Shown in pieces: positions 6,450 to 50,706 of a stretch of 64,000 bases of DNA. The stretch comes from a virus, in IMG/VR virus record IMGVR_UViG_3300043409_000785, positions 1-64,000 of that record. One strand, 5' to 3'. Numbering within the stretch: the first letter of the stretch is position 1; each line of letters opens with the position of its first letter. A model generated the notes under the pieces. The model did not search any database. It was given only the letters and a program-made list of their open reading frames with translations, and had not been told where the DNA came from. A program made the position numbers and the translations under genes.

Positions 6450-6752
6450 ATGACCTTGAATCAATACATCGCTCAAGAACACGTCAAGCGTAAAAACGCT
6501 TACGAACCAATCAAGCCTATCGAATGTGTTGATGGTTTCACCATCAGTGTTCAAGCATCCCGAGTGCATTATTGTGAACCTCGCGAAAAAGATGGGCCAT
6601 ATTTATCTGTTGAATGTGGTTTCCCATCATCCGATGTACCTGAGATGGCTGACTACAAGGATGGTGATGATTACGACACTGATTCGGTTTTTGTCTGCGT
6701 CCCTGTTGAAATTGTGGAAGCAGTCCTGGCAAAGCATGGAGGCATGAAATGA
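6450..6752 (+). CDS. Conserved phage hypothetical protein
   Basis: IECVDGFTISVQASRVHYCEPR...ECGFPS...HGG pattern; GGAG RBS. Confidence 0.7.
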   Translation: MTLNQYIAQEHVKRKNAYEPIKPIECVDGFTISVQASRVHYCEPREKDGPYLSVECGFPSSDVPEMADYKDGDDYDTDSVFVCVPVEIVEAVLAKHGGMK

Positions 6753-8362: not shown

Positions 8363-8435
8363 TACACTAACTCTCCCCAACTCAAGGGCCACTCATGTGG
8401 TCCTTTTCATTTGTCAATTTACTTCAGGACGCATT

Positions 8436-9647
8436 ATGCAGAAGTTTCAAACATTCACCGCTCGTCAATATTTGATGATCGACATCGCCAACAACTTTGG
8501 CCTCGACAAAAAGAACTGGGATGACCGTCTTGCTTGGTTCAAAGAGAATGAGCACTGCCTCATGGATCTGGTCAAGCAAGCTGAGACACCAGCTCTGTAC
8601 TACGCAGGTGTCAAAGCCTGGGAAGCTGTGCAGCGTGGTGAGCCTATCGGTTACCTCATCTCACTCGACGCAACTGCGAGTGGTTTTCAGTGCTTAGCTG
8701 CCTTGACGGGTGATCATAGTGCAGCTCAACTGTGCAACGTGGTGGACACTGGCAAACGTGAAGATGCCTACACCGTGGTGTACAACTTCATGATGTCTGT
8801 TTTGGGTGAAGACTCCAAGATTGACCGTGCTGACACCAAACAGGCCATCATGACTGCGCTCTACGGCAGCAAGGCTCAGCCCAAGAAAGTCTTTGGCACT
8901 GGCAAGCTGCTCAAGACCTTTTACGCTGTGATGAATCATTTGGCTCCTGCTGCTTGGAAGCTCAACGAGGCTTTCTTGGCTATGTGGAATCCACAGGCAC
9001 TCATTAACAGCTGGGTACTTCCTGACAACTTCCATGTTCATGTGAAGGTCATGAACCAGGAAGAGGAAACAGTCCATTTTCTGAACAAGCCCTACACCAC
9101 GTTCAGGACGGTCAATGCTCCAAAAGAGGATGGCCGCAGTTTGGGAGCAAATTGCATACATTCGGCTGATGCGCTTATCGTTCGTGAGATTGCAAGACGT
9201 TGTGATCACGATCCTGCTCAGGTTCAGTACCTCTATGAAGTGCTAGAAACCTATTCCGAGCATCCTGCTGAGGAAGACAACATCTCCCTCAAGATGGTGG
9301 AAACCCTCTGGCAGCACTACCTTGATTCAGGCTATCTTTCAGCCCGGATCATGGACTATTTGCATGCCGATACGGTGCATCTGGTGGACCGTGAGGTGGT
9401 CAAGGAACTGCTGGATTCGCTGCCCAAGAAGCCTTTCAAGGTGCTGTCAATTCACGACTGCTGGAGGTGCCTTCCAGCCTACGGTAATGACATTCGCTGG
9501 CAGTACAACAATCAATTGATGTTGATTGCCAAGAGCAACCTGCTGCAGTTCCTGCTGTCCCAGATCATGGGCAAGGAGATCAAGATCACTAAACAAGATC
9601 CTGATCTTTGGAAGAGCATCATGGAATCGAACTACAGCTTGAGCTGA
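8436..9647 (+). CDS. N4-type RNA polymerase II subunit 2 (gp16-like)
   Basis: LDATASGFQ (motif A), RADTKQAIMTALYGS (motif B), LSIHDCW (motif C). Confidence 0.93.
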   Translation: MQKFQTFTARQYLMIDIANNFGLDKKNWDDRLAWFKENEHCLMDLVKQAETPALYYAGVKAWEAVQRGEPIGYLISLDATASGFQCLAALTGDHSAAQLCNVVDTGKREDAYTVVYNFMMSVLGEDSKIDRADTKQAIMTALYGSKAQPKKVFGTGKLLKTFYAVMNHLAPAAWKLNEAFLAMWNPQALINSWVLPDNFHVHVKVMNQEEETVHFLNKPYTTFRTVNAPKEDGRSLGANCIHSADALIVREIARRCDHDPAQVQYLYEVLETYSEHPAEEDNISLKMVETLWQHYLDSGYLSARIMDYLHADTVHLVDREVVKELLDSLPKKPFKVLSIHDCWRCLPAYGNDIRWQYNNQLMLIAKSNLLQFLLSQIMGKEIKITKQDPDLWKSIMESNYSLS

Positions 9648-9848: not shown

Positions 9849-10253
9849 ATGGGTATTCTACTAGCAGCTTACGACTCAAGCAAAACTGAAGTCACGTTCG
9901 GCAAAAAAAGATTCAACGTGCCCTTCTACTCACCACTACAAACAAGGAACAAGTGCATGACTGACGCAAGAAAAGTCCTACAGACGCTTACCAAAACAGA
10001 GTCTTGGTTCTTTTGGGAAATGGATATATCCAAGGATACGGAAACAAATGAAGTAATGTTTTCTAGGAGTAATTGCCCAGAAGAGAATAAAACCACCTAC
10101 CCAACTATTATTAAAAATCTGGTTGACAAAGGTATGATTTTGCGAATCAAGCAAAACCATTACCTGATAAACCCCAACGTGACGATGCCCAAGTTTGATT
10201 CGTATGCCAAAGTGTTGGCCAAATGGCATAGCTTAGGTGGCTTGCCGCTGTAG
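9849..10253 (+). CDS. RepL-like winged-helix DNA-binding protein
   Basis: IIKNLVDKGMILRIKQNHYLINP winged-helix wing motif. Confidence 0.55.
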   Translation: MGILLAAYDSSKTEVTFGKKRFNVPFYSPLQTRNKCMTDARKVLQTLTKTESWFFWEMDISKDTETNEVMFSRSNCPEENKTTYPTIIKNLVDKGMILRIKQNHYLINPNVTMPKFDSYAKVLAKWHSLGGLPL

Positions 10254-10298
10254 TGGCATAGCTATTCTTTCTTTGGTTCTAAAAACTAGGAGTGACTT

Positions 10299-10631
10299 AT
10301 AACAAATGATCGTATTAAAGAATTGGCACTGGCCAATGGATTCAAGCTTGTAAATCAAGGCATGGCAGGTATTGACCTGGAGCCTCCTGTTTATGCCTTT
10401 GCAAATGCTTTGCTTGCAGAGCACAAAAGCTGGCAACCACTGACAAGCAAAATGCTTGAGCAGTTTGAGCTGGAAGGCTCTGGTGAGTGCTTCCTTATTG
10501 ATGATGATGATGGATTCAAACTGGTAGGTGTCTATGAGTGGCGTCAAGGCAGGAACCCACATGGATTTTCTGACAGTGATGGTCGATGGTATTCAGCAAG
10601 CGACTTCACCAAGATCATGATCAATCCTTGA
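10299..10631 (+). CDS. Hypothetical protein, apparent ATA start
   Basis: AGGAG at 10288-10292, 6 nt before ATA; frame reads ITNDRIKELALANGFKL. Confidence 0.5.
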   Translation: MTNDRIKELALANGFKLVNQGMAGIDLEPPVYAFANALLAEHKSWQPLTSKMLEQFELEGSGECFLIDDDDGFKLVGVYEWRQGRNPHGFSDSDGRWYSASDFTKIMINP

Positions 10632-10702: not shown

Positions 10703-11116
10703 ATGGGCCTCGATCAGTACGCCTACCGCATCAAAGCTGGCATTCTCAACGATAACGATCAAATTGATCTGTGTAGCAATCTTTTCCATGATGGAAACCC
10801 ACTGCCAGGGGTTGACACAAAATTTGCCTACTGGCGCAAGTTCAACGCCTTGCACGGCTGGATGGAACAGCTCTACCGTAGCAAGGGTGGCACCAAAGAA
10901 TTCAACTGCACCACAGTACGTTTGATACCAGATGACATTGCTCGCCTAGAGTCGATGGCTTTGGCTAAAGCTCTAGTACCTGTAGCTGGATTCTTCTTTG
11001 GAGATAGCGAGTCTCCCTTCAGCGATGAAGACAAGGATGAAGTGCTTGAGTTTGTTTCAAAAGCCAAAGAAGCTCTGGCTTCTGGTGATGCTGTTGCGTA
11101 TGACAGCTGGTGGTAG
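10703..11116 (+). CDS. Conserved phage protein (MGLDQY...YWRK...YDSWW type)
   Basis: AGGAG RBS; characteristic terminal motifs. Confidence 0.7.
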   Translation: MGLDQYAYRIKAGILNDNDQIDLCSNLFHDGNPLPGVDTKFAYWRKFNALHGWMEQLYRSKGGTKEFNCTTVRLIPDDIARLESMALAKALVPVAGFFFGDSESPFSDEDKDEVLEFVSKAKEALASGDAVAYDSWW

Positions 11117-11149
11117 GCTCAGCCTTTCTTGGGTTGAGTAAACTATAAA

Positions 11150-11425
11150 GCCTGCCTGAAATGGCAGGCCCATCATTGAATGACATTGAGTAGGTTGCCA
11201 CAACAACCTAACTACTTGTGGGTATGCCGGAGCTGAGGCTGCGGTCAGTGTTATTCAATGATGGTGAATGTGGGATGCTGACCCACAACGAGTGTCGGTA
11301 AATCCCCATCCGATTCGATAGGATATGACTCAAGGTGTGTGAAATAGCGGGTTGTCTCAGGACAGCAATAGGCTTTCACTGCAAACGTAAGGACACCATG
11401 CAAGGATCAGCTCTCGCCACCATCA
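11150..11425 (+). ncRNA. Candidate structured ncRNA unit 1
   Basis: 7-bp hairpin 11150-11169; 20-bp stem 11170-11189/11245-11264 with two G:U; internal H-type pseudoknot; second domain closed by TGATGGTG/CACCATCA. Confidence 0.6.
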
Positions 11426-11453
11426 CCTATTGTTAATAACTAAGGAACCAAAG

Positions 11454-11726
11454 ATGAACCGAGAAAAGAATGAGCAGTCTGTGATGATGTCTGCTTTTGC
11501 TCTGTGCCCAACTGAGCAAAGTCATCCTCAAAAAATGAAGTGGATCGGTGACTACTTTCTCAAGCACTACGTCCCGTGGGTGCCCAAGTACGCTCAGCTT
11601 TCCCAAGAGGAATGTGATCGTCTGCAGTACGATCAAGGTGGTTGGACACGTAAGTTCCGTGAGGCTCACAAGCTAGGCTGGGATGCAGCAAGGAAAGCTC
11701 ATGAAACTGATCTGCCCAAACTGTGA
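11454..11726 (+). CDS. Hypothetical protein
   Basis: AAGGA RBS; 90 aa. Confidence 0.6.
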   Translation: MNREKNEQSVMMSAFALCPTEQSHPQKMKWIGDYFLKHYVPWVPKYAQLSQEECDRLQYDQGGWTRKFREAHKLGWDAARKAHETDLPKL

Positions 11727-11898
11727 GACAGAAGGTAGCCTGTCTGTGATAGAAACCAGACAGTCTGCCAAGCTCATCTACCGTACAAGGAGATGTGAAT
11801 CCTGTAAGTGGAAGTTCACTACCCACGAAACTTTTGCTGAAGATGAGACTATCCCCAACAATATCCGTAGAAATTACAGCAAAGAGTTGGAAAGCTAG
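11701..11898 (+). CDS. NrdR-N-terminal-like zinc-ribbon protein
   Basis: CPNC...VIETR...RTRRCESCKWKFTTHE. Confidence 0.7.
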   Translation: MKLICPNCETEGSLSVIETRQSAKLIYRTRRCESCKWKFTTHETFAEDETIPNNIRRNYSKELES

Positions 11899-11933
11899 TG
11901 TAGAATTAAGTTAGTGGTAGCCCAGAGATGGGG

Positions 11934-12034
11934 CTATCCTAGAAGCAGGTTGTAACTCAGTTGGTAGAGTAGAGTCCACCGAACACCGATCTTTTGTCGC
12001 TGGTTCGAGTCCAGCCAGCCTGCTTCTAGGATAG
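11934..12034 (+). ncRNA. tRNA-like RNA with 19-bp extended acceptor stem and enlarged anticodon loop (unit 2)
   Basis: D arm ACTC-AGTTGGTA-GAGT, T arm GCTGG-TTCGAGT-CCAGC, stem 11934-11952/12016-12034, no CCA. Confidence 0.7.
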
Positions 12035-12109
12035 TGTGATGTAGCTCAGTGGTAGAGCAGAGAACTCATAATTCTTTGGTCCTTGGTTCAAATCCAAGCT
12101 TCACAACCA
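12035..12109 (+). tRNA. tRNA-Met/Ile2 (CAT)
   Basis: Cloverleaf; anticodon arm GAGAA-CTCATAA-TTCTT; T loop TTCAAAT; encoded CCA. Confidence 0.9.
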
Positions 12110-12216
12110 GTATGCGGTGCGGTTCATGGTGTTGCTTGTAAAGCTGCATCTCGTGGGTGTTAAAACCATGAACCAAATAGCCCATAGCCTAGGGGCTTTA
12201 TAAATTAGGTTGACTT

Positions 12217-12505
12217 TGCTGGTGGGAAAGAAACCAGCACTATCAAGAGAGTAGATCAGAGTGGCAGGTTAACTGCAACCTTGTCAAACAATTGCCAAGT
12301 GAAGACGTAATAGCTTGGCATGGATTTGGTGTTCAACAGGAGCATGGACTAGCTATCCTACGCAAAGGTTGAACCACAGCAGCAAATCGCTGGATAGTAT
12401 TGATCTACTCCCTTGATGGTGTAACGTAATTTGCGTACTAGCTCCGAAGTACAAGGAATCAAGCTAGGGTGCTTGAGGCTCAAAAGGCATGATCGGCCCC
12501 ATCAA
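12217..12505 (+). ncRNA. Candidate structured ncRNA unit 3
   Basis: Hairpin TGCTGGT/ACCAGCA; 21-bp stem 12238-12258/12401-12421; several internal hairpins; second domain closed by TTGATGG/CCATCAA. Confidence 0.6.
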
Positions 12506-12520
12506 CTACCAATGGCGCTT

Positions 12521-12699
12521 TGCTGGTTTAGCGTCGATACAAATCAAACCAGTACCATCAAGTAAGAATCAAGGAGTCCGTTAATCACGGAAACAGGAGC
12601 AATGACTTAGTATCTTCTTCCTTGGTTCTTTCTTGATGGTTAAGCATATACGGGCTTCATGCTCTGTATGTCGGGTTGGGAGTTCCTAGCCGCCATCAA
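12521..12699 (+). ncRNA. Candidate structured ncRNA unit 4
   Basis: Hairpin TGCTGGTTT/AAACCAGTA; 23-bp stem 12554-12576/12618-12640; second three-way domain closed by TTGATGGT/GCCATCAA. Confidence 0.6.
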
Positions 12700-12707
12700 C
12701 TTTTAAT

Positions 12708-12783
12708 GCGGGCTTGGCCGAATCAGGTTAGGCGGTAGCTGTTATGGTTACAGATGTGAGTTCAAATCTCATAGCCCGCTTCA
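12708..12783 (+). tRNA. Atypical tRNA with Gly-type body; central loop triplet TTA; ends TCA
   Basis: GCGGGCT/AGCCCGC acceptor, U73, anticodon arm GTAGC-TGTTATG-GTTAC, T arm GTGAG-TTCAAAT-CTCAT. Confidence 0.65.
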
Positions 12784-12790
12784 ATTTCAA

Positions 12791-12865
12791 GGGTGTATAT
12801 TTTAATTGGCAAAATGCTGATCTCCAAAATCAGTGATGGGAGTTTGAGTCTCGCTACACCCGCCA
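12791..12865 (+). tRNA. tRNA-Trp (CCA), slightly degenerate T arm
   Basis: GGGTGTA/TACACCC; CTGAT-CTCCAAA-ATCAG; T loop TTTGAGT; CCA end. Confidence 0.75.
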
Positions 12866-12872
12866 AGTATTT

Positions 12873-12948
12873 GCTGGTTTAGTTCAATTGGTAGAACGCC
12901 TGATTTGTATTCAGGATGTTGAGGGTTCGAGTCCTTTGACCAGCACCA
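12873..12948 (+). tRNA. tRNA-Thr (TGT)
   Basis: Cloverleaf; CCTGA-TTTGTAT-TCAGG; TTCGAGT; CCA end. Confidence 0.9.
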
Positions 12949-12956
12949 AGTTTATT

Positions 12957-13047
12957 GCGTCGTTAGCTTAATGGATAAAGCAGCAGCCTTCTAAGCTGTA
13001 AGTCAACGAAGACATTAATGTAGGTTCGAGTCCTACACGGTGCACCA
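12957..13047 (+). tRNA. tRNA-Arg (TCT) with long variable region
   Basis: GCAGC-CTTCTAA-GCTGT; 20-nt variable region; GTAGG-TTCGAGT-CCTAC; CCA end. Confidence 0.8.
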
Positions 13048-13123
13048 GAACTCTCCAGTGAGGGCTAAGGCCACGGCAGTAAGGCTACCATTTGAATGAG
13101 TATGGAAAATCTGTCCCAGTTTT

Positions 13124-13197
13124 GCAGGCTTGGCCGAATGGTTAGGTTCTGGATTTCCAATCCAGCTATGTGAGTTCAATTCTCACAGTCTGCTCCA
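13124..13197 (+). tRNA. tRNA-Gly (TCC)
   Basis: CTGGA-TTTCCAA-TCCAG; U73; CCA end. Confidence 0.88.
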
Positions 13198-13218
13198 TTA
13201 TGCTTTGCAGCAGCCTTT

Positions 13219-13257
13219 AACCCCGTATGTTCCTCTGGAGCTGCGGGGTTCTTTTTT
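13219..13257 (+). terminator. Terminator closing the tRNA cluster
   Basis: AACCCCGTA...TGCGGGGTT-CTTTTTT. Confidence 0.7.
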
Positions 13258-13507
13258 GAATCAAACAAAATAGGATAGCTTATATCTAAACGAGAATTCT
13301 TTGGTGAGTATTATTACCTCTGGGCAATTCAGCAATATGAAGCAGCCAGGGTATTTCTCAAAAACTGTGGCCGTCCACAAAACGACCACGATAGATTTCT
13401 GATTTCAGAAGCAAAGTGGTCTGCTTCATTTTTCAAACAAATATTGAACTAGGCTAACAAGCCTGTTCTTCTTTTCTTGGTTCAACAACCCTTTAACAAA
13501 ACAAATC

Positions 13508-37272: not shown

Positions 37273-40200
37273 TTAGTCAAACACAGCATTCACAGTTGGC
37301 AGCAGCATTGGTGCATTGAACAACATTCCTGGTCCAATGGAATTGCCAAGACCACCAGACCATGCTTTAGAGAACAGGTTGTCCGTGATGGGCGTTCCAA
37401 TGGAACCAAACAGATCGGGCTTGGGCATCATTCCTACCACCAGAGCATGCACTGGATTATTACGAATGGTACTTAAGGCAATCTTCACCAGACGAAGCTT
37501 GAAGTTATAGAACCAAAGCATACCAACACTTTCCAGATACCCGCGGCTACGGCCTGGGAGTCTGTCGTAGTTTACAAACTCTTCAGTAATACGTGCCAGA
37601 GCTTCTTTGGAAGTCAATCCTTTGCGTTGTGTCAAATCATCATAAAGGACTGCCTTGGCAATAAAGTCTCCGTAGTTCACTGCTTTTTGCAAGCCTTGGA
37701 ACAGGGCAGTGTCTTTGGTAACCAGAGCATATCGGCCTGCATTACGGATGCTGGTAGGCAGTTTGTCCACCAGTGATTCGATGTACTCATGCAGCTTGCC
37801 ACTGGTCAGTTGAACGTCTTCGCTCGCCACTTCCATATCTGAGATGGATGAGAACTGGCCAGCTTCAATCAAAGGCCAGATCGACATACGACGATAGCTG
37901 TCACGGATAGACTGCAGCTCAGCACTGAGCTTGCGGGTATTGATCACATCACCTTCAGCGGCTCTGAGCAAAGCTTCAACCTTAACTTCCCGACGACGAG
38001 ATTTGGAGTATGAATCTACTTCCAGAGTTTTACGTGGCATTCCTTTAGCAATACTTAGCAAAGGAACACCCCGGCTAATCAACTGATAGACATTACCAAT
38101 CAGATTGGAGATTGGAACAATGATCGACTTCATAACAATCAAAGTCTTGGCACTACCGACCACGTTCTGCAAGATACGTTCACCATTGACCATGTACTGA
38201 TAGGCTTTGTTTCCAAAGACACTGATCGCCAAGTTCTTAACAGCAGCCTCAGTCTCAGGTGACCACCGATGATTACCTGTCCAGAAATCGCCAATAGTAG
38301 CGCCACGATAACCAAGCATATCATTAGCCAGTTCTTTGCGAACCATGAAAGTGCCTTTACCAAACACATCCTCAATGTATTTAATGGTTTCTGGGTTTAA
38401 TAAACGAACTGCATCAGCCAGCACAGGGTCTTTCTTTTGTTCCTTTGGATCAAAGACATTGATGTACTCTGCTTTTTTGCTACTGCTATTTTGCAGATCG
38501 GTTTTGTACATCTTCTTGGCAGCATCTACCAAGGCTTCATTGAAGACTTGAACCTTGGCCTCTTCCACCTGACGACCACGCCATACACCAATCATTTTGG
38601 CAAGGTCTGTGCTTTGGCTCAGACGCTCTAGTTGCTTAGGATCAACAGCCCGTTCAAAGGCCACAATGACACCATCAGCAGAGCGTACTGGCAGCAAAGG
38701 TTCGGTGGTAGCACGTTCATTGCGCAGGTTCTGTGCCAAACGATAAACCAGTTTACGATCAGTGATTCGCCCTGCTGTCATCAGCCCATCGGTAAAGCCA
38801 GTAGCCAGATCAATACCGCCAGCAGTCTGTCGAGCATTCTGCATCGTGCCCTGGTTGTAAGCAGCACGACCTGGAACGTTAGCAAAGTAGTAGCTTCTTG
38901 GTTCACCGCCCACTAGTGAAGAACCTTTATAGCTTTCCACCTTGGTATAACTTTTGCCGATTAGCTTGCTGTATTCAGCGTCAGAAGCTACAACCATAGT
39001 GACATTGCCATCCTGGCTGCTTGGGACAAACCCCTTGAAGTAATTCATACGAGCTGTCAGTGAAGCATTGGCTTTACGCATCTCTTCAGCACGTTGACCA
39101 GTCAAGTAAGCCATCACAAAATCAACACCCTGGGCTTCACTTTGAACCAAGGAAGAAAGACTACTGAGGTTCTCGTTGCTCAAACCATCAATGGCGTAAA
39201 GCGATACCAGCTTGTCCACAGCTTTGATATAGGCTTCATCTGGTTTGGTTCGTTTAGCTTGTTGAGGCTCGTCAAACAGGTTAGCCACAGACTCAGCATT
39301 GCGAAGCAGATTGTTTCCATAACCCTTACCGTTCATGTAGTCAGCCAGTTGCCTGGCTTTCTTTTCTACTTGGTTCCAGTGTTGTGGATCAGCAGTTTTA
39401 AGCTGGGTTTCCACAGTCCGGATAGCCATAGGCAGAGCAGATGGTTTGGTGAATAGTTCACGAATCTCAGCATCCTTCATGCTTTCACGAAGCAATGCAA
39501 TATCGGTTTTGCCCAGACCATGAAACATGGCTGTCATCTCTTCTTTGGTCACAGTACGGCTGAACTGTTCCAGAATAACTCCCGGCAGATCATCCCGGTA
39601 GTGTTGACGATCTTGAGAAACCATAGTCCGAACCAGCTTGTTCTGGTCATAGATTTCAGCATTGGAATCGGTACGTCCCACAATGTCGGCGATGACTTCA
39701 CGCAAGGTACGGAAACCATCCACCTTGTTGATAGTAGAAACAATACCTTGAGCAACAATCTCAGCGTTATCCTCATTAATGATGGCAGAGGTCAGCTCAC
39801 CCAACTTGCCCAATGTTTGTGAGAACTTACCGTACTGTGGGTTTTTCAACGCAGATACAGAAGCTTTGTGAAGTGCTTTTGCACTCTTGTCGATGTAACC
39901 TAGCAGTCTGTTGTTGCGTTTGTTCAAGCGGGTTTCTCGCCAGTCTGCAAAACCTTCTGTCATTCGAGTCAGCAAATCATTGTTCGCCGTACTCATCAAG
40001 TGTTCAGTCAAAGCATCAATGGCAGCTTGAACATTAGGCGCATGTTTGCCTTCACCAGAGAGACGGAGAGAGAGCTTTTCCATCAAGCTGTTACCGGCAT
40101 TTTCAAAAGCACTGTCCAGACTATCCCAGTCCTTGAGTTTGGTTTTGGGCAGTTCCAGCTTGGACAGCACACCACGGAACTTCTCGTTGGTGATAGCCAG

Positions 40201-43200
40201 CCCCATAAATACAGGCAGCAAGGTAGAACGCCCAAGGGCGTCTTTGCCCTCGTAGTAGTTACCCATCACAGCGTTGTACTGCTCATTGGCGTAGTACAAA
40301 GCCGAACCAGCATCGGTATTGCTTGGGTCAATGAAGTCAGCAACCGTCAGTGTTTTGGTAGCCAGCGTAAACAGCTCTTGAGCACGAGCCATTGTGTTGG
40401 GGTCAATCACAGCCTGGGTAGCCAACGTCTGCACAATGGATGTGAATGTAGATTGCTCTATTGGTTCCATTGGGAAGCCATGAGCATTCAAAGTCATGGC
40501 AGCTTCAGTAGCTACTTGAATGGCTGTGGTAGTCACTTTGCCCGTCAACACACCGTCTTTGGTAAGAGGCATCTTTAAGTGGTTAGGGATACGCTTCAAG
40601 AAGTTATCCCGAATACCGCGTAGGCGAAGATCATTCTTGGGTGAAGAATGTGGCAACACCGCAGTAGAAGCAGCTGCCATCGTAGCTGCAATACTAGGCT
40701 GATAACGAGCCAGCAAAGCAGTATTAAAGCGAATGTTGGTGAACATATCACCACCGACTTTAGGAGCACGTTTACCCCACACCAGTTCCTTAATGAACTC
40801 CAGCACCATCTTGGAAATACGAACCAAAGGATTAGCCGTGGTGTTTTTCGTCATGCGGATTAGGGCAGGATTTGACTGGGTGTAGGCCATGAACTCATTG
40901 AGTGCAGATGCCTGAGCCAATGGATTTTTTCCTTGGTTCAAGTGGATCTGGATCACCGAACGAGCATGCAGGTACTGCTGCATCGTTTCAGTGCTCAGAG
41001 CAGGAAGCTCTTCACTCAGTTCCATGAACTGACGCATCAGGATTTCAAGACCCCCCACAGCACCAGCAATATCTGCATTGCCTTTACCCGGCAATGTGCC
41101 ACTGTAGTGGGCATGGATGATACTGAAGGTAGCGGCATGGACCATCTCATGCACCAACGTTTCACCGGTGGCATTGGGAAATATGATGATTTTTTGCCCA
41201 GTCAGGGTCAGACCCTTTTCCAGATTGTTTAAATGCTCTGCTGCAACGCCTAGTTGCTCTGCTTTGGCTCTGATTTGTTCATTGGTTCCAGTGATGAAGG
41301 TCCATCCTTCAAGGGCTTTACTGTTCACCAGTTCGTTGTACATCCACCGCTGCTCTTGTGGGATGTTCATTTGTGAACCAAGGAAAGAAAGATTCTCTTG
41401 GTAGAAGACCTTAGCCCCAGTAGCCATATCGTGGTAACCAGAGTTACTAATGGCTTCAGAAATGTCCTGAGTCTTGCTTAGTTGCTTGGTGACCCTCTCA
41501 CGATGGAACTCTCTGCGCTCGTTTAGAACTTCAATGATTTTTTCATCAGACATGCCTTCAACAGAGATGGTTCCTTGATGCTGGTAAGGTGAGCTGAAGC
41601 CAGCCATCTGGTCAATACCAGCACTAATGTCTTGCATTGCAAGATGGCGAATCTCAACCTCAATGGCTGCATTTTTAAGCTTTTCATTGACCTTCACTAG
41701 CTCTAAACTGAGATCAGTTCTTAACCAAGACAGCTTTTCCCCATCCATTTGATCAACTTTTAAACTCGGACCATAAAATGCTGAAGCAAGCTTCTTAAAC
41801 AGAATGGGCTTGTCAACTGCAATGCGTATTATCTCTCCATCAGTGTCTTGCATGAACACACTGTAAGACTCCGACAAGGCTTTCATGGCATTGCCCATCC
41901 AGGCATCGAAGATGGCCTTATTAGCCTTCTCGGAATACTCACCCAGCTTGTCCAATGGCAGGTTGATACCGTCGAACACTGGGAGCGTACCAACAACATC
42001 ACCATCCCAGTAGAAGTTCATGATCATCTGGCCATCAACCATGCCGATGTTCAGAGCAGCAATACCACCAACACCCAGATCTTTTGGTCCACTAGCCATA
42101 GCTGGAGTTTTAAACTGCCCATCCAAAGATGAACCAAATGCCTTAACGTTTTCCAGTCTATTGGATTGAGAACCGGCAAGGTAGTATTCCATGTTGCCTG
42201 TGTCAATCTTAGGCATCATGTACTTCAGCTTTTCCAAAACCTTCTTTAGCTCATTCTCAGATAGGAAGTCTCCTTCTTGATGGTTAGGGTCTTCCTTTTT
42301 CTTTTTGTCTAGGGCTTTAGCAACCTCAGTCTTAAAAGCATCCTCAAGGAACAGGGTCTGAACCTGGGTGGCTTGGCGAATAAGCTCCATAGAACTCATC
42401 AAGCTTGCACCCATAGTTTGACGAATAGCTGTATCCATTGGTTCAACAAACAGTGTCTTGACATTGCCAGTCAGTGTAGCTTTAGCATTTTCATCTACAG
42501 TGAAGCCAACTGCAGTTTCATGATTCACTGATTCAACTCTTGGGGTGTAAACATCAGACTGACCCAATGAAGTAATACCAGAATCCCTATCCGTTTTAAC
42601 GTAGAAGTTGGTTAGTGCTTCCCAAGCGCCAGTGAACTTGTTGAAGTTCTCTCTTGAACCAAACATGATAGTAGCTTCATCAGCGTTACGATCAGCATAC
42701 TTAGCTGCAGCTACGTCAGACATCTTGGAGTACAGCTCGTCAGTGATGATGCCTACAATCTTGGCAGCAATGCCATACTGACCAGCACCATAGATGGTCA
42801 CAGTAACTGGACTCTTGGCGGCACCACGTTTGATCTTCAGTTCACCTTTCTCATTGAAAGTGACATTGCCTTCAAACAGCAGTTCCAGCAGGTTCAACAT
42901 GTGCTGAACTTGGTTACTGGCTTGCGTATCTCCAGGAGCACTCGTAGCGTCATACACTGCTTTGCTCTCCTCAATCAATGTAGAGGCAGTATTAGCAACA
43001 GTGCCATAGGTATCTACGTCGTCAGCAACAAACTGATCCTGTGCAGTCCACCCCTCTTTACCGGGGTAGTAGCCAACCTTACGCATCATTTGAAGCTCAT
43101 GCACTGTGAAGGCTCCAGTGCTATGCAGAATCATGGCACCACCGGGACCATTCTGCATACCGTCAGCTTCACCATACAAAGTTGTGGTGAAGTTCTTACG

Positions 43201-46200
43201 CTCATCCGAGTCCTTGGCTGTATTCAAGTACCTAGCGTACTCAGTCAGAGCCTGTAGAGCCAGGTTGTTAAGCTCCAGACCAGCATTATTGAAGCTTTCA
43301 ATGAAGATGTCTGTAGCGTCAGCTTGGATAGCACCTTGGTCATTCACCCACTTCTGCAATACTTCCACAGCAGGTTGCAGTTCAGTGTGCAGTTGCTTCT
43401 TGATCTGCTCTCTTACCAAATCGGGCTTGATACGCTCAATCTTCATGCCAACAGCCTGGGCGATAGCAATTAGAAAGTTCTTATATGAGGCTTCGTTCTT
43501 GTTGTCCAGGTTAATGACTGTTGTATGAGGCGACAACACAGCTCTCATCAGTTTATCGCCTTGAGGAGTGTTTCTTCCTTTCTGCTGTAGGCGCTGAACC
43601 TTGCTAGGCTGCATTGGGAAATGCACACCAACTTCTTCTGAGGTCTTACCAACAGCTTCAGCTCTAACATCAACCTGTGAGCGCAAGAAGTCCATACCGA
43701 GCATGCCGGAGACGATACCTTGGTTAGTGCCCTCCACAGACTTCAAGTGGTTTTTATTGAACTTGTTTTGCTTCTCTTCCTTGGACAAACTACCAAAGCC
43801 AAACAGCTTAAGCATGTTATCAAAGCCAAGAGCTTCGTACAGCTTGTACTGGTGAGTGAAGTTGTACGGGGTATTCTGAGTAGCTTCAATAGCTTTCAGT
43901 GCTTGCTTCTTGTTCTTGGCTCCAGGATTACGCATCTGTGTTCTGGCAACACTAGGACGCTCATCCTCCAAATAAACAGTCTGCTCAGGGGTAACCAGCA
44001 CAGCTTGCTCGATGGCGTCTGGGTAAGACTGTAATGATTTCACATGTTTACCCACAACAGCTCTCAAGTCAATCAGGATACGATTGTGGGTTTTACGATC
44101 AATGGCTGGAAAGCCTTTTTTGTTCAAGACCTGTTTGCCCTTAGCGTCTAAGATCGGCGTATTCCAATTAAACTCTTGTTTGCTCAGTAAGCTGATTGGG
44201 CCTTGCTTAGTGTCAACTGTGATACCAACCATAGTTGCAAGAATCTCAGCAGCCATGGAGTTAGCAATACCAATTACCTGATCCATCGGGTAATCTTTAT
44301 TACCCTCCAGTCCCCAGTATTGACGGATTTTGTCACCAAGAGCAGTAACAGCATCAAGTTCACCTTGACCAATGCTCATCTCAGTAGCCAAACCAGAAGG
44401 TACTTCACCCTCTTGAATGCCAAAGATACCAGCCACACTCTTGTTAGTGAGCCTGCTTGTCACGCCCTCAGAAGTAATCAACCACTGCAATGCAGCGAGC
44501 ACAGCACCTTCTAGCAGTGTTTCGTTGTAGGTCAACTTGCCATTGTTATTATTCAGCAGGTTGAATACCTTACCTGTGTCCCAGGTGTTCACAAAACCAG
44601 AAGCAGTAATCTGCTCTTGAATAGTCACACCAATGTTCTTGCCGGTTTCAGGTGCATAGGCTAATCTAGCAGCTAGCTTAGCTTTCACCGCATCAACTAC
44701 CTGAGCGCCAACACGAGAAACGTACTGTTTGTACAAGTTACCTAACTGGTCAGAGTAACCAGCTTTAGGTTTTTTACCCATTGTTTCTGTCATATTCTCG
44801 GTAGAGGTTACAGCACTAGAGATAGTTTCCAGTGCTGTATTGACCAAAGCAATACGGCTAATAGCTGCAGCAGGCAGCTTGTATGCATCCAGGAAGCGAT
44901 TGGCAGCACCACCAAACAGGTTAGAGAATTTGGGTTCATCACGAAGACCCGTAGCCTCACCTGTGTACACGAACGGTGTCACATCGCTAACGTCTTCTTC
45001 CTCAATAGGGTCAGCTTCCTCTTCTTGAACCAAGGAAGAAACAACAGTGGCACTAGGCTCAGCAGTTACAGGCTTGTTCACCAGCTCATATTGCATCTGG
45101 TAAGCAATCTTGCCTTTGTACTTGGCGTAGAGGCTAGGTGCCCAACCTTCCAGTTTGCTCCACTCTTCTGCTGTGACGCTAGACACCAAGTACGGATCAG
45201 TAGTTGCACGAACCTGTGCTTTCTGGCCTGTATAAGTGTTCTTTACCGTAAAGACATCGCCCTTCTTTAAACCCTTGAACCCTGCGAGATCATTACGTGT
45301 GCTGGCAGTCCGGTCACCAGACAGAATCAAATCCATCGTGCTTTTGCCTTTAAACTCAGAGCGCATTACGTGAGAGGCATCCTGACCATCACGATAGTTC
45401 ATTGGAACCACAATGCCAGTGTCAGCACTAGGCTCAGCAACAGCAGTAGGTGCAACAGCTGCTGGAGTAGAAGTAGCTGGAGGTTCTACTTTCTTCTTTG
45501 GTTCAACCGCAGGCACACCATTGAGAACATCTTGGTAGGCAGCATTTAGCACCTTCATGAAATTGCTCTTGGAGCCGACACCTTCCCAACGAGAACCTTT
45601 CACACCAACAGTATGCTCAGAAGCTTTCAGAAATTCCTTACCACCCCGTTCAGTAATCTGAGTAACCAGTTCAGGGTACTTTTGCAGCTTGGCAATGATC
45701 ACTGCTTTCATGGTCAGCATATCTGCAGCCAGCTTCTCAGCAGCAGTACCTGTAGTGGCTTTGTTGGCCAAGTACCAACGCTCAGCGTCTTTGAACTTGG
45801 TGGGGACATTTGCCAAACCTGGAACTGAGTCAAGCGTGTATTTGTCATAGGTAGGGTTGGTCAACGCCCTGCCAAGCGCATCAGTCGATTTGCTGTAGAT
45901 GTTGATGCCAACAACTTCAGCAGGCTTGGCAGTAGCTACGCTGCCTTGTGGAGCTTGCGGTACAGAAGTGCCTGGATCACTTCCAGTCGTTGTTTGGCTG
46001 GCAGTTGCTGCAGCTTTTGCAAGGCGTCTTGCTTCCCGATTGGCTTTTTGTTTTGCGAGTTCGGCTTCGACTTCTTTAAGGGCATTTTGTAAATCCTCTG
46101 CGTTGAGTGCTTGTTCAAGTTCCTGCAAGCTGGTGCCAATTTGGCCCAGCAGCATCTCGGTATCATAGGTTAAGTAGTTACCCTGCCCCAACTTATTGGC

Positions 46201-49200
46201 GATATATAGTTCCGCACTGCTCTCTTCATTAGGCGCAGTGTACCCATCGTTGACTTGCCGCTCAGAACCAAATCGCATATTGGGCGGCAAAAAGTCATCC
46301 AGCCTACCATCTGCGGTGTAGGTTGACAACTTTTGCCCTGGCTTGCCTTTCAAGAACGTCCTGGTCTTTTTCCAGTCAGGACCAAAGATTTGATTCAAAT
46401 CCCACTCAGTCATCGAATGCTTAAGAGCATTCCACAAGCTTGCTGGGTTCTCCCGTACTGCTTTTTTCTCAGCACGAGTCGTTTCACGAATCAGTTTGAG
46501 AAGCTGCCTGACTTCTTTCTTTTGTTCTGGTGTAGCTGTTGACAAATCAACAGACGAGTCTTCGCCTAACTTATCGAGCAGATTCTCAATGTCTTTTCTG
46601 AGATCGTGCAATGGCGCTAGGTCATTAGGGAGGCCATATATGTTGTGGCTTTCATATACCCCAATGAAATCATTTAGTTTTTCCAAAGTTTTCTTGAAAT
46701 AGTTTTCATTGAACTTACGATTAGCCTCAATGTCTTCTAGGCTACCTGTGTTGCTTAGAGACTTCCCAACAATCTCCATATTATGCCGGATGCCACTAAG
46801 TACGGGGATGCTTTCAATAAAGTCGGCAGCTTCATTCCATATGGCAAACTCTAAGGGGGACACTACACCCTCTTCGTTTACAGGAATGCCATCTTGTAGA
46901 TCGTAAACAAGCCAAGCAGTTGAGTAATCTTCCGCTTCTGGTGAGAACTCCACATCAACGTCACCCCGCCTCCAAGTCAACTCTTCGCCATCTACTGGAG
47001 TAAACCCCATGTTCTGTAGCTGATCCAACTCTTCTTCTGTTGGCTCAGTCTTCATAGAAGTCTGGGAATTGATGGCACTTGTGGCCTCATCAACCAGTGC
47101 GTTCATTTCTTCCAACGCCGTGGACAGAGCAGTAGCATCAGCTTCACTGACAGAACCAGCCATCAATTCATTGATGGCAGTTATCTTTTTATTGGCCCAC
47201 TCAATTACATTTTTGAGCTTTACGGAATCCTCTGCAGTAGGTTTTTCAAGAAGAGCTTTAGCTTTGTCCACCCCCACCTGTATATTTTTTAGCAAAGATT
47301 TAACAGGTTCCACTGACGTGTTAACTTTTCCTTCATTTTTAGACACGTTGGTAATTTCACCGCGAGCAAGTCTTGCGGAAAACGCAACCCCATTTCCATC
47401 AACTTTACCTTTACGGAGATCACCGTGGGGGACCATTTCTCCACCAGCGCCTTCTGAAAAAACAATACCGTTTTTCACTTCAAATTTGAGGCCAGTTTCA
47501 GAGTCTTCGTATAAACCATCCGATATCCCGTTTGGTTGATTTTTTGTAACCACGCCCTCACGTTCTTTTAATTTTTCAGCTGCCTTGGCTGCTTCTGCAG
47601 CGTCACTTTCTGCGCGTCCTTCCGGGGATTGGCTACGCTCCAGCTGTGCTTTACGCGCAGCTAGTATTTCTTTTTCCTGGGCTTTGGCTTCTGCAATGGT
47701 AAGGAGGGTACCACTTTCTTTTGCTGCAATCAGCAAGCGAACTGCATCAGCGCCCACACCATGCTCTTCTTTAAATTTACGAACAGCAGGGCTATTCGGA
47801 AAACGCCGACGACCATCCTCATCGAATAAGTCATCTACGGTTGTATTAGTAGTAATCGGCGAGACAGGCTTCACACCAGTCTTGAAAGCTGCCACCACTT
47901 CAGCAGCAGGCTTGTCAATCCGGGAATCCAAAGCAACAGCCTTCAGCTCTTGACCATTCAGCTCAGAGAATGTGTCCTTCAAGTTGTTGTAGGCAGCAGC
48001 AATCATCCTGGCATCAGCTGCCACATCCTGCATGAGCTGGACGCTTGCCTCATTCCAAGGCTTGACCCAAACACCACTCGCACTGTCTTTGAACATGCGA
48101 TCAGTTTGTCCAAGCGTTGTGTACGGCACAGCCTTCTTCACGTCACCACGGCCAGTCAGCAAGTGCTGATTGAATGCGGCCATTTTGTTCTGGATGGTTT
48201 CAGCGAACTTCCTGAAGTCTTCCAGCAAGACTCTAGCCCCGGCAATGTCGTTGGCTCGGTAGGCTTTGTAGATTTCAGTGGCATGCTGTACAGCTGACAA
48301 CTGGCCCTTACCCAGATACTCGGCAGACTGGATCTGGTTGCTCACAATGTCTTGAGTTTTCAAGCCAAGACGTTCACGGTTAGCAAAGTCTTCCCGTGAC
48401 ATATCGAACAGCCCCTTGGCAATAGCTACACCTTTTTGCTGCTTCTCCGTGAGCACCAGCTTGCCAGAAGCAGCATGGGCCAACACAGCATTAACCAAAG
48501 CAGGATTGGCTTTTGCAGGATCATGCGCAATGGCATTGGCAGCGTTCTGAGCAGCAAGCTGACCTTCAGGGGTAGCCATGCTTTGCTCTGTCAGGTTAGC
48601 ACCGGCTTTGGCATTCTCAGCCACCACAAAGGCATCAATCCTGGCCAGCGTTTTCTTCACGATTGGTTGAGCATTGATCTTTGCTAATGTGTCCTTAATG
48701 GCCTTCATGCGAACCACAGCAGGATGATCGTCAGGCAGTTTGCTTAGCGAAGCAGGCTCACTACGAAGAGCATCTTCCAAATCAAACACATAGTTGTTCA
48801 GCTCCAGAGCAGCAGCAAAGTTAACCGTCCCAACATCACCTTCACTGTTTGCATTGACAAACTGAGCCAGCTTCAGCATGGCTTCAGCTTTGTCTTTGGA
48901 ACCAGCAACAACATCTACCAAGGGAGTTCCTGCAAAGGCAGCAGCGTCCTGTTCACCATAGTTTAACGCACCAGTGAGTTTTGCTGCGTAAGCCTGCCCT
49001 TCTGTCTTTTCTTCTTGGTTCAAATCTGAAGTATCAATACCTGCTTGAATGGCAGCAGCAGTTTCTGGCATGGCAGCCTGAGTAGCTGCAACTTCAGCAG
49101 CAATCTTGTTTGGAGCCAAAGGAGAAGCAGCTTCATTGCCAGCTTCAAGCTTGGCAACAGACTCACTCATTGCTGTAGAAGCTTTGCCCCACAGGTATTT

Positions 49201-50652: not shown

Positions 50653-50706
50653 TCTGGTTTCCAAGATATAAATTTGAGCTAGGTTGTAGTGTAACTCTAC
50701 ATAGAC

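Follow-up and report, generated by a model that had tools for sequence, protein, structure and literature searches.

The window analysed here is a stretch of 64,000 nucleotides (nt) from a virus (IMG/VR record IMGVR_UViG_3300043409_000785, positions 1 to 64,000) and makes up most of a 73.6-kilobase (kb) record that is rated complete by CheckV. At positions 11150-12700 it carries a string of four structured units, each built around a long stem with a folded insert. The string lies on the same strand as the transfer RNAs (tRNAs) and the genes around it and runs straight into a tRNA array, and the region is non-coding apart from two small open reading frames (ORFs). The same modules are found in unrelated phages, and the region is therefore probably the window's copy of a real, uncatalogued family of modular, tRNA-associated structured RNAs that occurs in diverse phages. 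A sequence-only reading had described the units as a repeated scaffold with different structured cargo and had proposed that they are processed into a panel of small RNAs. Its observation is confirmed, and its interpretation is partly supported.

Architecture of the string

Each unit consists of a small hairpin (P0) or the end of the preceding unit, a long stem (H1) and a second domain closed by a further helix (H2). The four stems lie where the sequence-only reading had placed them (Table 1), and all of them are found among the first five of 34 pairs when inverted repeats with arms of at least 16 nt, no more than 250 nt apart, are ranked over the whole window. Counting G·U, the paired positions amount to 21 of 22, 19 of 19, 21 of 23 and 21 of 22 in units 1 to 4, respectively; the stem of unit 1, for example, comprises 18 Watson-Crick pairs, three G·U pairs and one other pair. 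A small hairpin abuts every 5' arm, as determined from both the sequence and the folds. The heptamer TGATGGT closes the 3' arms of units 1, 3 and 4, and each of these units is followed by a downstream CCATCA. Likewise, the strings said to be common to units 3 and 4 are present in the sequence, and the second domain of unit 2 is indeed a tRNA-Met with anticodon CAT (70.1 bits in Rfam). What had been overlooked is that the insert of unit 2 is itself tRNA-like.

Folding of the region is considerably more stable than that of dinucleotide shuffles. The segment 11150-11440 gave z = -3.63, with none of 200 shuffles as good, and 11900-12710 gave z = -7.72, with none of 20 as good. The minus strand also reached z = -7.94, because long stems fold on either strand; its minimum free energy (MFE) of -265.1 kcal/mol is nevertheless 27 kcal/mol worse than the -292.2 kcal/mol of the plus strand. 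The number of TGATGGT heptamers as such carries no weight. Genome-wide there are 37 copies against 10.5 in dinucleotide shuffles, but the count is ordinary under a higher-order model (32 against 28.9 expected) and was therefore rejected as a signal, the evidence being the stems and their conservation in other phages.

Table 1. Features of the RNA string and its immediate surroundings (window coordinates; bp, base pairs; aa, amino acids)
Feature	Position	Strand	Evidence or remark
P0-1, 7-bp hairpin abutting the 5' arm of unit 1	11150-11169	+	MFE and centroid folds
Unit 1 H1, arms 11170-11189/11245-11264; base CCAUCA/UGAUGG; 55-nt folded insert	11170-11264	+	inverted-repeat rank 4
Unit 1 second domain, alpha type; TGATGGT at 11259, CCATCA ending at 11425; H2 = 11259-11266 with 11418-11425	11259-11425	+	
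Unit 1 alpha hairpins a and b, with complementary loops	a 11269-11287; b ~11403-11414	+	
Unit 1 alpha conserved core, common to Curvibacter phage P26059A and L154	11323-11397	+	
P0-2, hairpin abutting and overlapping the start of unit 2	~11918-11936	+	sequence, fold
Unit 2 H1, 19-bp stem CUAUCC.../...GGAUAG, arms 11934-11952/12016-12034; tRNA-like insert 11946-12023	11934-12034	+	inverted-repeat rank 5
tRNA-Met (CAU) in the second-domain slot of unit 2	12035-12109	+	ARAGORN, Rfam
P0-3, hairpin abutting unit 3, paralogue of P0-4	~12215-12239	+	sequence, fold
Unit 3 H1, arms 12238-12258/12401-12421; base CUAUCA/UGAUGG; 142-nt multi-hairpin insert	12238-12421	+	inverted-repeat rank 2
Unit 3 second domain, gamma/decayed tRNA-like; TGATGGT at 12414, CCATCA ending at 12504; UGAUGG 12414-12419 with CCAUCA 12499-12504	12414-12504	+	
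P0-4, hairpin abutting unit 4	~12519-12553	+	sequence, fold
Unit 4 H1, arms 12554-12575/12619-12640; base CCAUCA/UGAUGG; 41-43-nt insert	12554-12640	+	inverted-repeat rank 1
Unit 4 second domain, beta type, three-way junction; TGATGGT at 12634, CCATCA ending at 12698	12634-12698	+	model R1, 66.7 bits; covariation
ORF between units 1 and 2	11454-11726	+	no Pfam match; context, not part of an RNA module
ORF, 65 aa, NrdR-type zinc ribbon without ATP-cone	11701-11898	+	PF22811, 35.6 bits; context only
Canonical tRNA array, anticodons tta, cca, tgt, tct, tcc	12708-13197	+	ARAGORN, Rfam

Occurrence in other phages

A blastn search against 50,697 phage records returned matches to the tRNA-Met and, in Curvibacter phage P26059A, a single non-tRNA match that covers 75 nt at 78.8% identity. 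At that locus a 1-kb gap, which also contains a tRNA, holds three long stems together with junction strings and downstream domains that are the same as in the window. In Alcaligenes phage CASP1, tRNA-Met and tRNA-Arg are immediately preceded by a small hairpin, a long stem and an alpha domain. Pattern scans of IMG/VR, the hits of which were then filtered with a stem-finder, added about 17 contigs, with the loci L022, L026, L058, L073, L292-L298, L302, L311 (with two identical copies), L324, L329, L379, L391 and L154. Among the genomes of 185,579 species, one of three hits was a true instance (L300, on a bacterial contig); the other two, L299 and L301, were rejected as chance matches inside coding sequence. 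Scans with a 15-mer and a 14-mer pattern gave 89 and 119 stretches, mostly chance matches, and a gapped junction scan gave 80, mostly one coding repeat from one sample rather than the RNA. About 55 large viral contigs of IMG/VR sample 3300045988 share a near-identical 76-nt coding stretch (e.g. L303 2288-2363), which fits the junction pattern by coincidence and has nothing to do with the RNA family.

The phages that carry the modules appear not to be relatives of the window phage, as judged from the fetched flanks, in which no shared protein is detectable. The ORFs of the window of at least 60 aa gave no match by tblastn at E up to 1e-4 in 21 member loci, with crude ORF calling from the first Met and with fetched flanks of 2-15 kb. 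Conversely, relatives of the 176-aa protein encoded upstream of the string in the window were found in 302 stretches, and the array is absent from all of the 80 best loci that were kept. Three of these 80 (L249, and L267 and L269 with one stem in common) gave isolated weak stems that lack the motif context. An N4-type RNA polymerase subunit gave no match in five other records, complete genomes of 84 kb and 47 kb included, in a search that had no positive control. The two cultured carriers both infect Burkholderiales: CASP1 infects Alcaligenes faecalis, and P26059A infects Curvibacter sp. IMCC26059. Since two phage-host pairs in culture thus carry the modules, their processing, as well as any effect on infection and defence, is directly testable.

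Next to the cassettes lie tRNAs in the window, P26059A, CASP1, L154 and L391, whereas the neighbour in L295 is a permuted transfer-messenger RNA (tmRNA). The latter gene (L295 1176-1577) is circularly permuted, in two pieces, and follows directly after the cassette string; it scores 79.5 bits with the Rfam model tmRNA_permuted, and the tag given by ARAGORN ends in AKAEVAAFA. In L154, an AT-rich phage contig, the alpha core occurs alone at 10131-10300, without the shared helix and behind a TATAAT box, after a tRNA-Thr, a tRNA-Gly and a small ORF (9877-10129). A different arrangement is seen in L022, L058, L292, L294 and L296-L298, where a conserved and seemingly non-coding element of about 300 nt precedes the cassettes (e.g. 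on the minus strand of L296, before the first UGAUGG). This element ends in the same UGAUGG and has no Rfam match.

Common helices and variable domains

Comparison of these loci shows which parts of a unit are fixed. H1 spans 15-25 positions around an insert of 13-142 nt, and its first six pairs read CYAUCA/UGAUGG. Position 2 of this base is C:G or U·G, or U:A in unit 2, where no H2 follows. Beyond the base the sequence is completely different between units while the pairing is kept, and the tip is hypervariable. The 24 distinct H1 stems from 19 loci comprise 396 Watson-Crick, 63 G·U, 4 A·C and 27 other pairs, where the asymmetry of 63 to 4 is somewhat inflated by a stem-finder that accepts G·U and penalises A·C. 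The excess of G·U on the plus strand had been noted in the sequence-only reading as a sign of selection on RNA; it is borne out as an RNA-level feature and points to selection on the plus-strand RNA.

H2 is the closing helix UGAUGGUG/CACCAUCA, with 7-8 bp of the form 5'-(U)GAUGG(U/C)G ... C(A/G)CCAUC(A)-3'. The slot that it closes holds either a real tRNA, a decayed tRNA or one of three folds, denoted alpha, beta and gamma. Alpha domains begin with AA and a 6-7-bp hairpin, followed by a variable centre and a second hairpin, usually of 5 bp. A hairpin of 4-6 bp abuts the 3' strand of H2 without spacer in 9 of 12 alpha domains, while that of the window is set off by 3 nt. Between the two loops, 10 of the 12 domains show a complementarity of at least 4 bp, formed by three different pairs of sequences. 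The beta type is a three-way junction, in which a 7-bp hairpin abuts the 3' strand of H2; in unit 4 the junction joins H2, as an acceptor-like stem, to a variable hairpin and to this conserved hairpin. In the gamma type, a hairpin with a canonical T-loop is seen in P26059A and L026. A covariance model of the beta type (R1) gave 52-79 bits for ten beta domains, and picked up 11 alpha, gamma or tRNA-like domains more weakly (13-29 bits) via the shared H2 and the abutting hairpin.

The beta domains also display covariation. In the ten copies, aligned by the covariance model as MAFFT misaligned the variable hairpin, 96.9% of the cells are paired, and four of the seven pairs in the 3' hairpin differ between copies at both positions. 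Covariation was scored at 0.210, against a shuffle mean of 0.118 (none of 500 shuffles as high) and values of at most 0.074 in slid controls. H2 is invariant within the beta type. Among 20 distinct domains, the seventh pair of H2 is U·G in 14, U:A in five and C:G in one.

The claim that one scaffold carries unrelated cargo is supported by close relatives, in which near-identical H1 stems bear unrelated tips, and by metagenome contigs, in which modules are re-joined at the shared motif. One metagenome contig joins 12410 directly to 12631, so that the hairpin of unit 3 is followed by the beta domain of unit 4 and the gamma domain of unit 3 is skipped. In a metagenome relative 194 other letters stand in place of 11181-11920, so the segment with the zinc-ribbon ORF is missing, and a third contig joins 11180 to 11451. 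The same hairpin body is inserted in the conserved upstream element of L292 and L058 and is absent in L022. From the rearranged metagenome contigs it therefore follows that modules recombine at the shared helix. The design, which combines short conserved folds that mimic tRNA with hairpins whose tips can be exchanged, all framed by one common helix, recurs in phages without a detectable protein in common in the fetched flanks. It is new, and no description of the module family was found in the literature, where supplementary lists of candidate motifs lay outside the search.

Likeness to tRNA

The second folded domain of the sequence-only reading is a tRNA-like element, and UGAUGG(U)G/C(A)CCAUCA is its acceptor stem. 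In their construction the second domains correspond to the upper half of a tRNA resting on a single invariant acceptor-like stem: H2 takes the position of the acceptor stem, and a hairpin of 5-7 bp abuts its 3' strand as the T arm does. In the alpha type the loop of the 5' hairpin is complementary to that of the 3' hairpin, much like the D and T loops in the tRNA elbow. The features in common with canonical tRNA (RF00005) are thus the 7-bp acceptor-like stem, the abutting 5-bp hairpin and the D/T-like loop contact, in addition to the presence of true tRNAs in some of the slots. For example, L391 has a real tRNA-Asn, the first three bases of which are the last three of the H1 3' arm, and the second domain of L296 scores 45.3 bits with the Rfam tRNA model, its acceptor being GAUGGUG/CACCAUC plus A. 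Decayed tRNA versions occupy the slot in L311 and L324.

In unit 2 the likeness extends to the insert. When 11946-12023 is scanned alone it reaches 42.7 bits with the Rfam tRNA model (gathering score 29), with D and T arms and with 16 nt in the anticodon region where the model has 11; ARAGORN lists it as 'tRNA-Gly acc', and the Rfam scan of the whole window did not report it. Its acceptor helix continues for 12 more pairs into the 19-bp stem, so that there are no free ends. The first unit of P26059A similarly has a tRNA-like domain on a long terminal stem (ARAGORN 'Pyl', 2490-2588).

Competing helices and a proposed model for processing

H1 and H2 are in competition for UGAUGG, which is part of both. 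The mutually exclusive pairings proposed in the sequence-only reading are both real and conserved as pairing possibilities. The H1 stems of the window, 19-25 positions long with 0-3 mismatches, offer the approximately two turns of mostly uninterrupted double-stranded RNA that RNase III acts upon, and the junction U(-1)/G(+1) is invariant at H2. Bacterial RNase P is known to prefer U(-1).

These features suggest a model in which the modules are tRNA-associated RNAs cut by tRNA enzymes, and we assign it a probability of roughly 0.45. The string would be transcribed together with the tRNAs. H1 would form first during transcription, and the acceptor-like stem would become possible once the downstream CCAUCA has been made. 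Host enzymes of tRNA maturation could then excise the tRNA look-alikes, RNase P cleaving between U(-1) and G(+1) and 3' trimming taking place after the A that follows CCAUC. This would set free hairpins of about 20 bp with variable tips, which RNase III may trim further. If RNase P and RNase III do cut the modules, the string would represent the first tRNA-driven small-RNA factory of a bacterial virus. The most speculative step is the last one, namely that the freed tRNA mimics and hairpins might target, in trans, host factors that recognise the shape of a tRNA, or might serve as decoys; any role in trans, be it as decoy, sponge or protein scaffold, is guesswork.

For the way in which the phage string may work, the closest parallel is offered by the tRNA-miRNA-encoded RNAs (TMERs) of the herpesvirus MHV68. 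These form a tandem series in the virus, in which a tRNA-like element is joined to long hairpins that are freed by tRNase Z (PMC4838037). However, TMERs belong to an animal virus, are transcripts of RNA polymerase III finished by Dicer, and have no sequence relation to the phage modules. The latter, in turn, have large structured hairpin inserts and share one common acceptor-like helix. A more far-reaching version of the processing model is that Burkholderiales phages carry RNA cassettes shuffled by recombination, in which one 6-8-bp duplex serves as the hairpin base outward and as the acceptor stem inward. The host tRNA machinery would dice the transcript into a customisable panel of mimics and hairpins, and the hypervariable tips would be shaped by an arms race, in which they serve as decoys for, or inhibitors of, defences that are tRNA-directed or RNA-sensing. 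We regard this version as unlikely; if true, it would give bacterial viruses an equivalent of the herpesvirus TMERs and would establish a new class of counter-defence based on RNA.

Several observations weigh against the processing model. Concerning the tRNA likeness, the alpha, beta and gamma folds are not cloverleaves and, unlike canonical tRNA, have no anticodon arm and no encoded CCA, the trailer after CCAUCA being ACU or CCU; the three types as found in the window gave no Rfam tRNA match at E up to 10. Concerning H2, invariance at six of seven positions means that covariation cannot prove the helix, the alpha domain of L026 has a C·A mismatch at the one variable position, and an A·C mismatch is seen in L295. 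Moreover, with nearest-neighbour energies, which leave tertiary contacts and pseudoknots outside the model, the complete-H1 fold was favoured over the H2 fold by 1.5-10.9 kcal/mol in eight of nine units (the ninth value, 20, is unreliable due to an imprecise 3' coordinate). Consequently, the acceptor-like stem may form rarely unless tertiary contacts or cleavage help. The inflation of the G·U count described above is to be added here. Neither transcript, transcript end nor cleavage product was seen, and of the listed runs that hold the stretch none is on record as RNA; the single run for which RNA was guessed is stored in the form of contigs and probably derives from DNA. Finally, the phage encodes no CCA-adding enzyme, RtcB or RNA ligase as an indication of tRNA warfare.

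Among the alternatives, the one that survives best, unlikely in its own right, is that all of these structures are purely cis-acting signals for processing and stability. The stems would be RNase III sites and the tRNA-like folds RNase P punctuation of an early or middle polycistronic transcript, which would be divided into tRNAs and mRNAs with protective hairpins left behind, the resulting pieces having no function of their own. The RNase III sites of T7 early RNA and tRNA punctuation are established precedents, stems of 15-25 bp fit RNase III substrates, and the string is located within a block of genes and tRNAs on the same strand, immediately upstream of coding sequence in L022-type contigs and, for unit 1, just before an ORF in the window. 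Signals of this kind, however, need neither conserved multi-helix domains with loop-loop pairing nor hypervariable tips on conserved stems, nor would they require a 75-nt core that is 79% identical between unrelated phages. The solitary alpha core of L154 behind its TATAAT box is not readily explained in this way either.

Comparison with known RNA families

No Rfam 15 family was found for any of the modules, and tRNAs alone reach threshold in the window. The same scan matched only the tRNA at the P26059A locus, and only the permuted tmRNA and two tRNAs at 12 related loci. Additional matches listed at E up to 10 (YrlA with 42 bits, tRNA-Sec with 24.6 bits, and microRNA and small nucleolar RNA models) are below threshold and explained by the tRNA likeness. 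The alpha, beta and junction motifs are ready seeds for new RNA family models. Two of the identities entertained in the sequence-only reading are not supported. For a retron RNA, no reverse transcriptase (PF00078) was found in the complete 73.6-kb record, in a search for which the control was positive in 3 of 14 genomes. A type III antitoxin is made of near-identical direct repeats, whereas the units measure 85-184 nt and differ in sequence; the search for ToxN/AbiQ (PF13958) was uninformative, with no match in the phage and none in the controls.

Stable RNAs without a known function have long been recognised among the tRNA clusters of phages. In phage T4, the tRNA gene cluster contains the stable RNAs RNAC and RNAD, which undergo maturation by tRNA-processing enzymes. 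They are two single RNAs as opposed to a modular string with a shared helix. They are still referred to as small RNAs of unknown function (PMC9697503).

The architecture described here also resembles that of the bacterial Y RNAs YrlA and YrlB. These combine a long stem with a conserved helix, a variable module, an arrangement as tandem RNAs and a tRNA-like domain, the latter being recognised by tRNA enzymes (PMC4201824). It is conceivable, if quite unlikely, that the phage modules are ribonucleoprotein (RNP) scaffolds of this kind. The CYAUCA/UGAUGG duplex would then dock one protein of the host or the phage, with the variable inserts as effector modules, as for Ro60/Rsr with YrlA and YrlB; binding of a protein via the invariant duplex would define a new RNP. 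A tRNA-like domain on a long terminal stem is found in unit 2 and in the first unit of P26059A, and the constancy of one helix, set against covariation in the remainder of the stem, would suit sequence-specific protein recognition. Still, no gene of the TROVE/Ro60 type (PF05731) was detected in the complete 73.6-kb record, where the control was positive in 2 of 14 genomes, or in five other module-bearing records (the whole 84 kb of P26059A and four IMG/VR records that are 15-59% complete). Nor did tblastn across the 21 member loci reveal a common neighbouring protein. The motif GNCGAAN0-1G, described as the putative Rsr site of YrlA (PMC4201824), occurs in none of 23 H1 5' arms and is absent from the plus strand of 11150-12700. 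Direct identity with YrlA (RF02553) was rejected, as the match at 11976-12085 falls short of the gathering score of 69 bits. What it covers is the T arm in the insert of unit 2 together with the D arm of tRNA-Met, and similar sub-threshold matches were obtained in 13 of 14 control genomes; dimeric tRNAs could potentially score on the YrlA model, according to the methods of the YrlA paper (PMC4201824).

A comparison with large ornate RNAs is relevant to the possibility, improbable in our view, that the whole string of 0.7-1.5 kb acts as a single multi-domain RNA, in which CCAUCA/UGAUGG may also pair between molecules. GOLLD and ROOL are often located beside tRNAs in phages and prophages. They are, like the elements described here, highly structured RNAs of unknown function and, together with OLE, form homo-oligomeric complexes (PMC12286853). 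The dense structure over the whole stretch (z = -7.7), the GNRA-type loops, the loop-loop pairings and the conserved upstream element of about 300 nt ending in UGAUGG in L022-type contigs would all be in keeping with one large RNA. However, GOLLD and ROOL each have one conserved large fold, whereas the phage elements are short shuffled modules whose number and order vary freely between phages, even between close relatives, and in the window the string is interrupted by two ORFs and by real tRNAs. In addition, neither GOLLD, ROOL nor any other large RNA was matched in Rfam, at gathering thresholds in the window and the 12 loci or at E up to 10 in 10900-13400.

Finally, an origin at the DNA level or a lack of function (inverted repeats of miniature mobile elements, protein-binding sites or decaying tRNA pseudogenes) might be suspected from the terminal inverted repeats around variable cargo, the insertion or deletion of modules between relatives (such as the hairpin in the upstream element of L292 and L058, not L022), the proximity of arrays to packaging genes in some contigs and the decayed tRNAs in the series, but it is highly improbable given the preference for G·U over A·C on one strand, the covariation in internal hairpins, the invariant single-stranded bases at the junctions, the restriction of conservation to the outer 6 bp of the arms with covariation in the rest, unlike transposon ends, and the conservation across phages without a detectable shared protein in the fetched flanks.

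Genome setting and additional observations

From its sequence, the window phage appears to be N4-like. A 4463-aa ORF at 37273-50664 on the minus strand, open under code 11 like the other large ORFs, and a fragment of a T7-type RNA polymerase at 8397-9647 (PF00940), just upstream of the RNA string, are what we take to be hallmarks of an N4-like phage. In the downstream tRNA array, the anticodon that ARAGORN predicts for the tRNA at 12708-12780 (Rfam tRNA 45.9 bits) is UUA, by which UAA stop codons would be read; this tRNA is present although the large ORFs of the phage, including the 4463-aa one, are open under code 11. The tRNA-Arg (TCT) at 12957-13047 measures 91 nt and, in the Rfam alignment, carries 17 inserted nt in its variable region.

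The heptamer of the RNA modules recurs at 6530-6546 in a perfect hairpin, TGATGGT-TTC-ACCATCA, with a 7-bp stem and a 3-nt loop. The shape presumably recalls that of the hairpin promoters of the N4 virion RNA polymerase.

A link between the unit 4 arm and the genome-wide motif GAACCAAGGAA was rejected as chance, with four copies in the region against approximately two expected by our own estimate (87 in the window). The 7-mer GAACCAA is itself frequent, with 87 copies on both strands (e.g. 16243, 16393, 16625, 19100, 19998 and 24284 on the plus strand, 56598 and 57303 on the minus strand). In its extended form, approximately TTGAACCAAGGAAAGAA, it is often found 5-10 nt before start codons, but also inside ORFs and in either orientation, and is a candidate promoter or translation-initiation motif of the phage.

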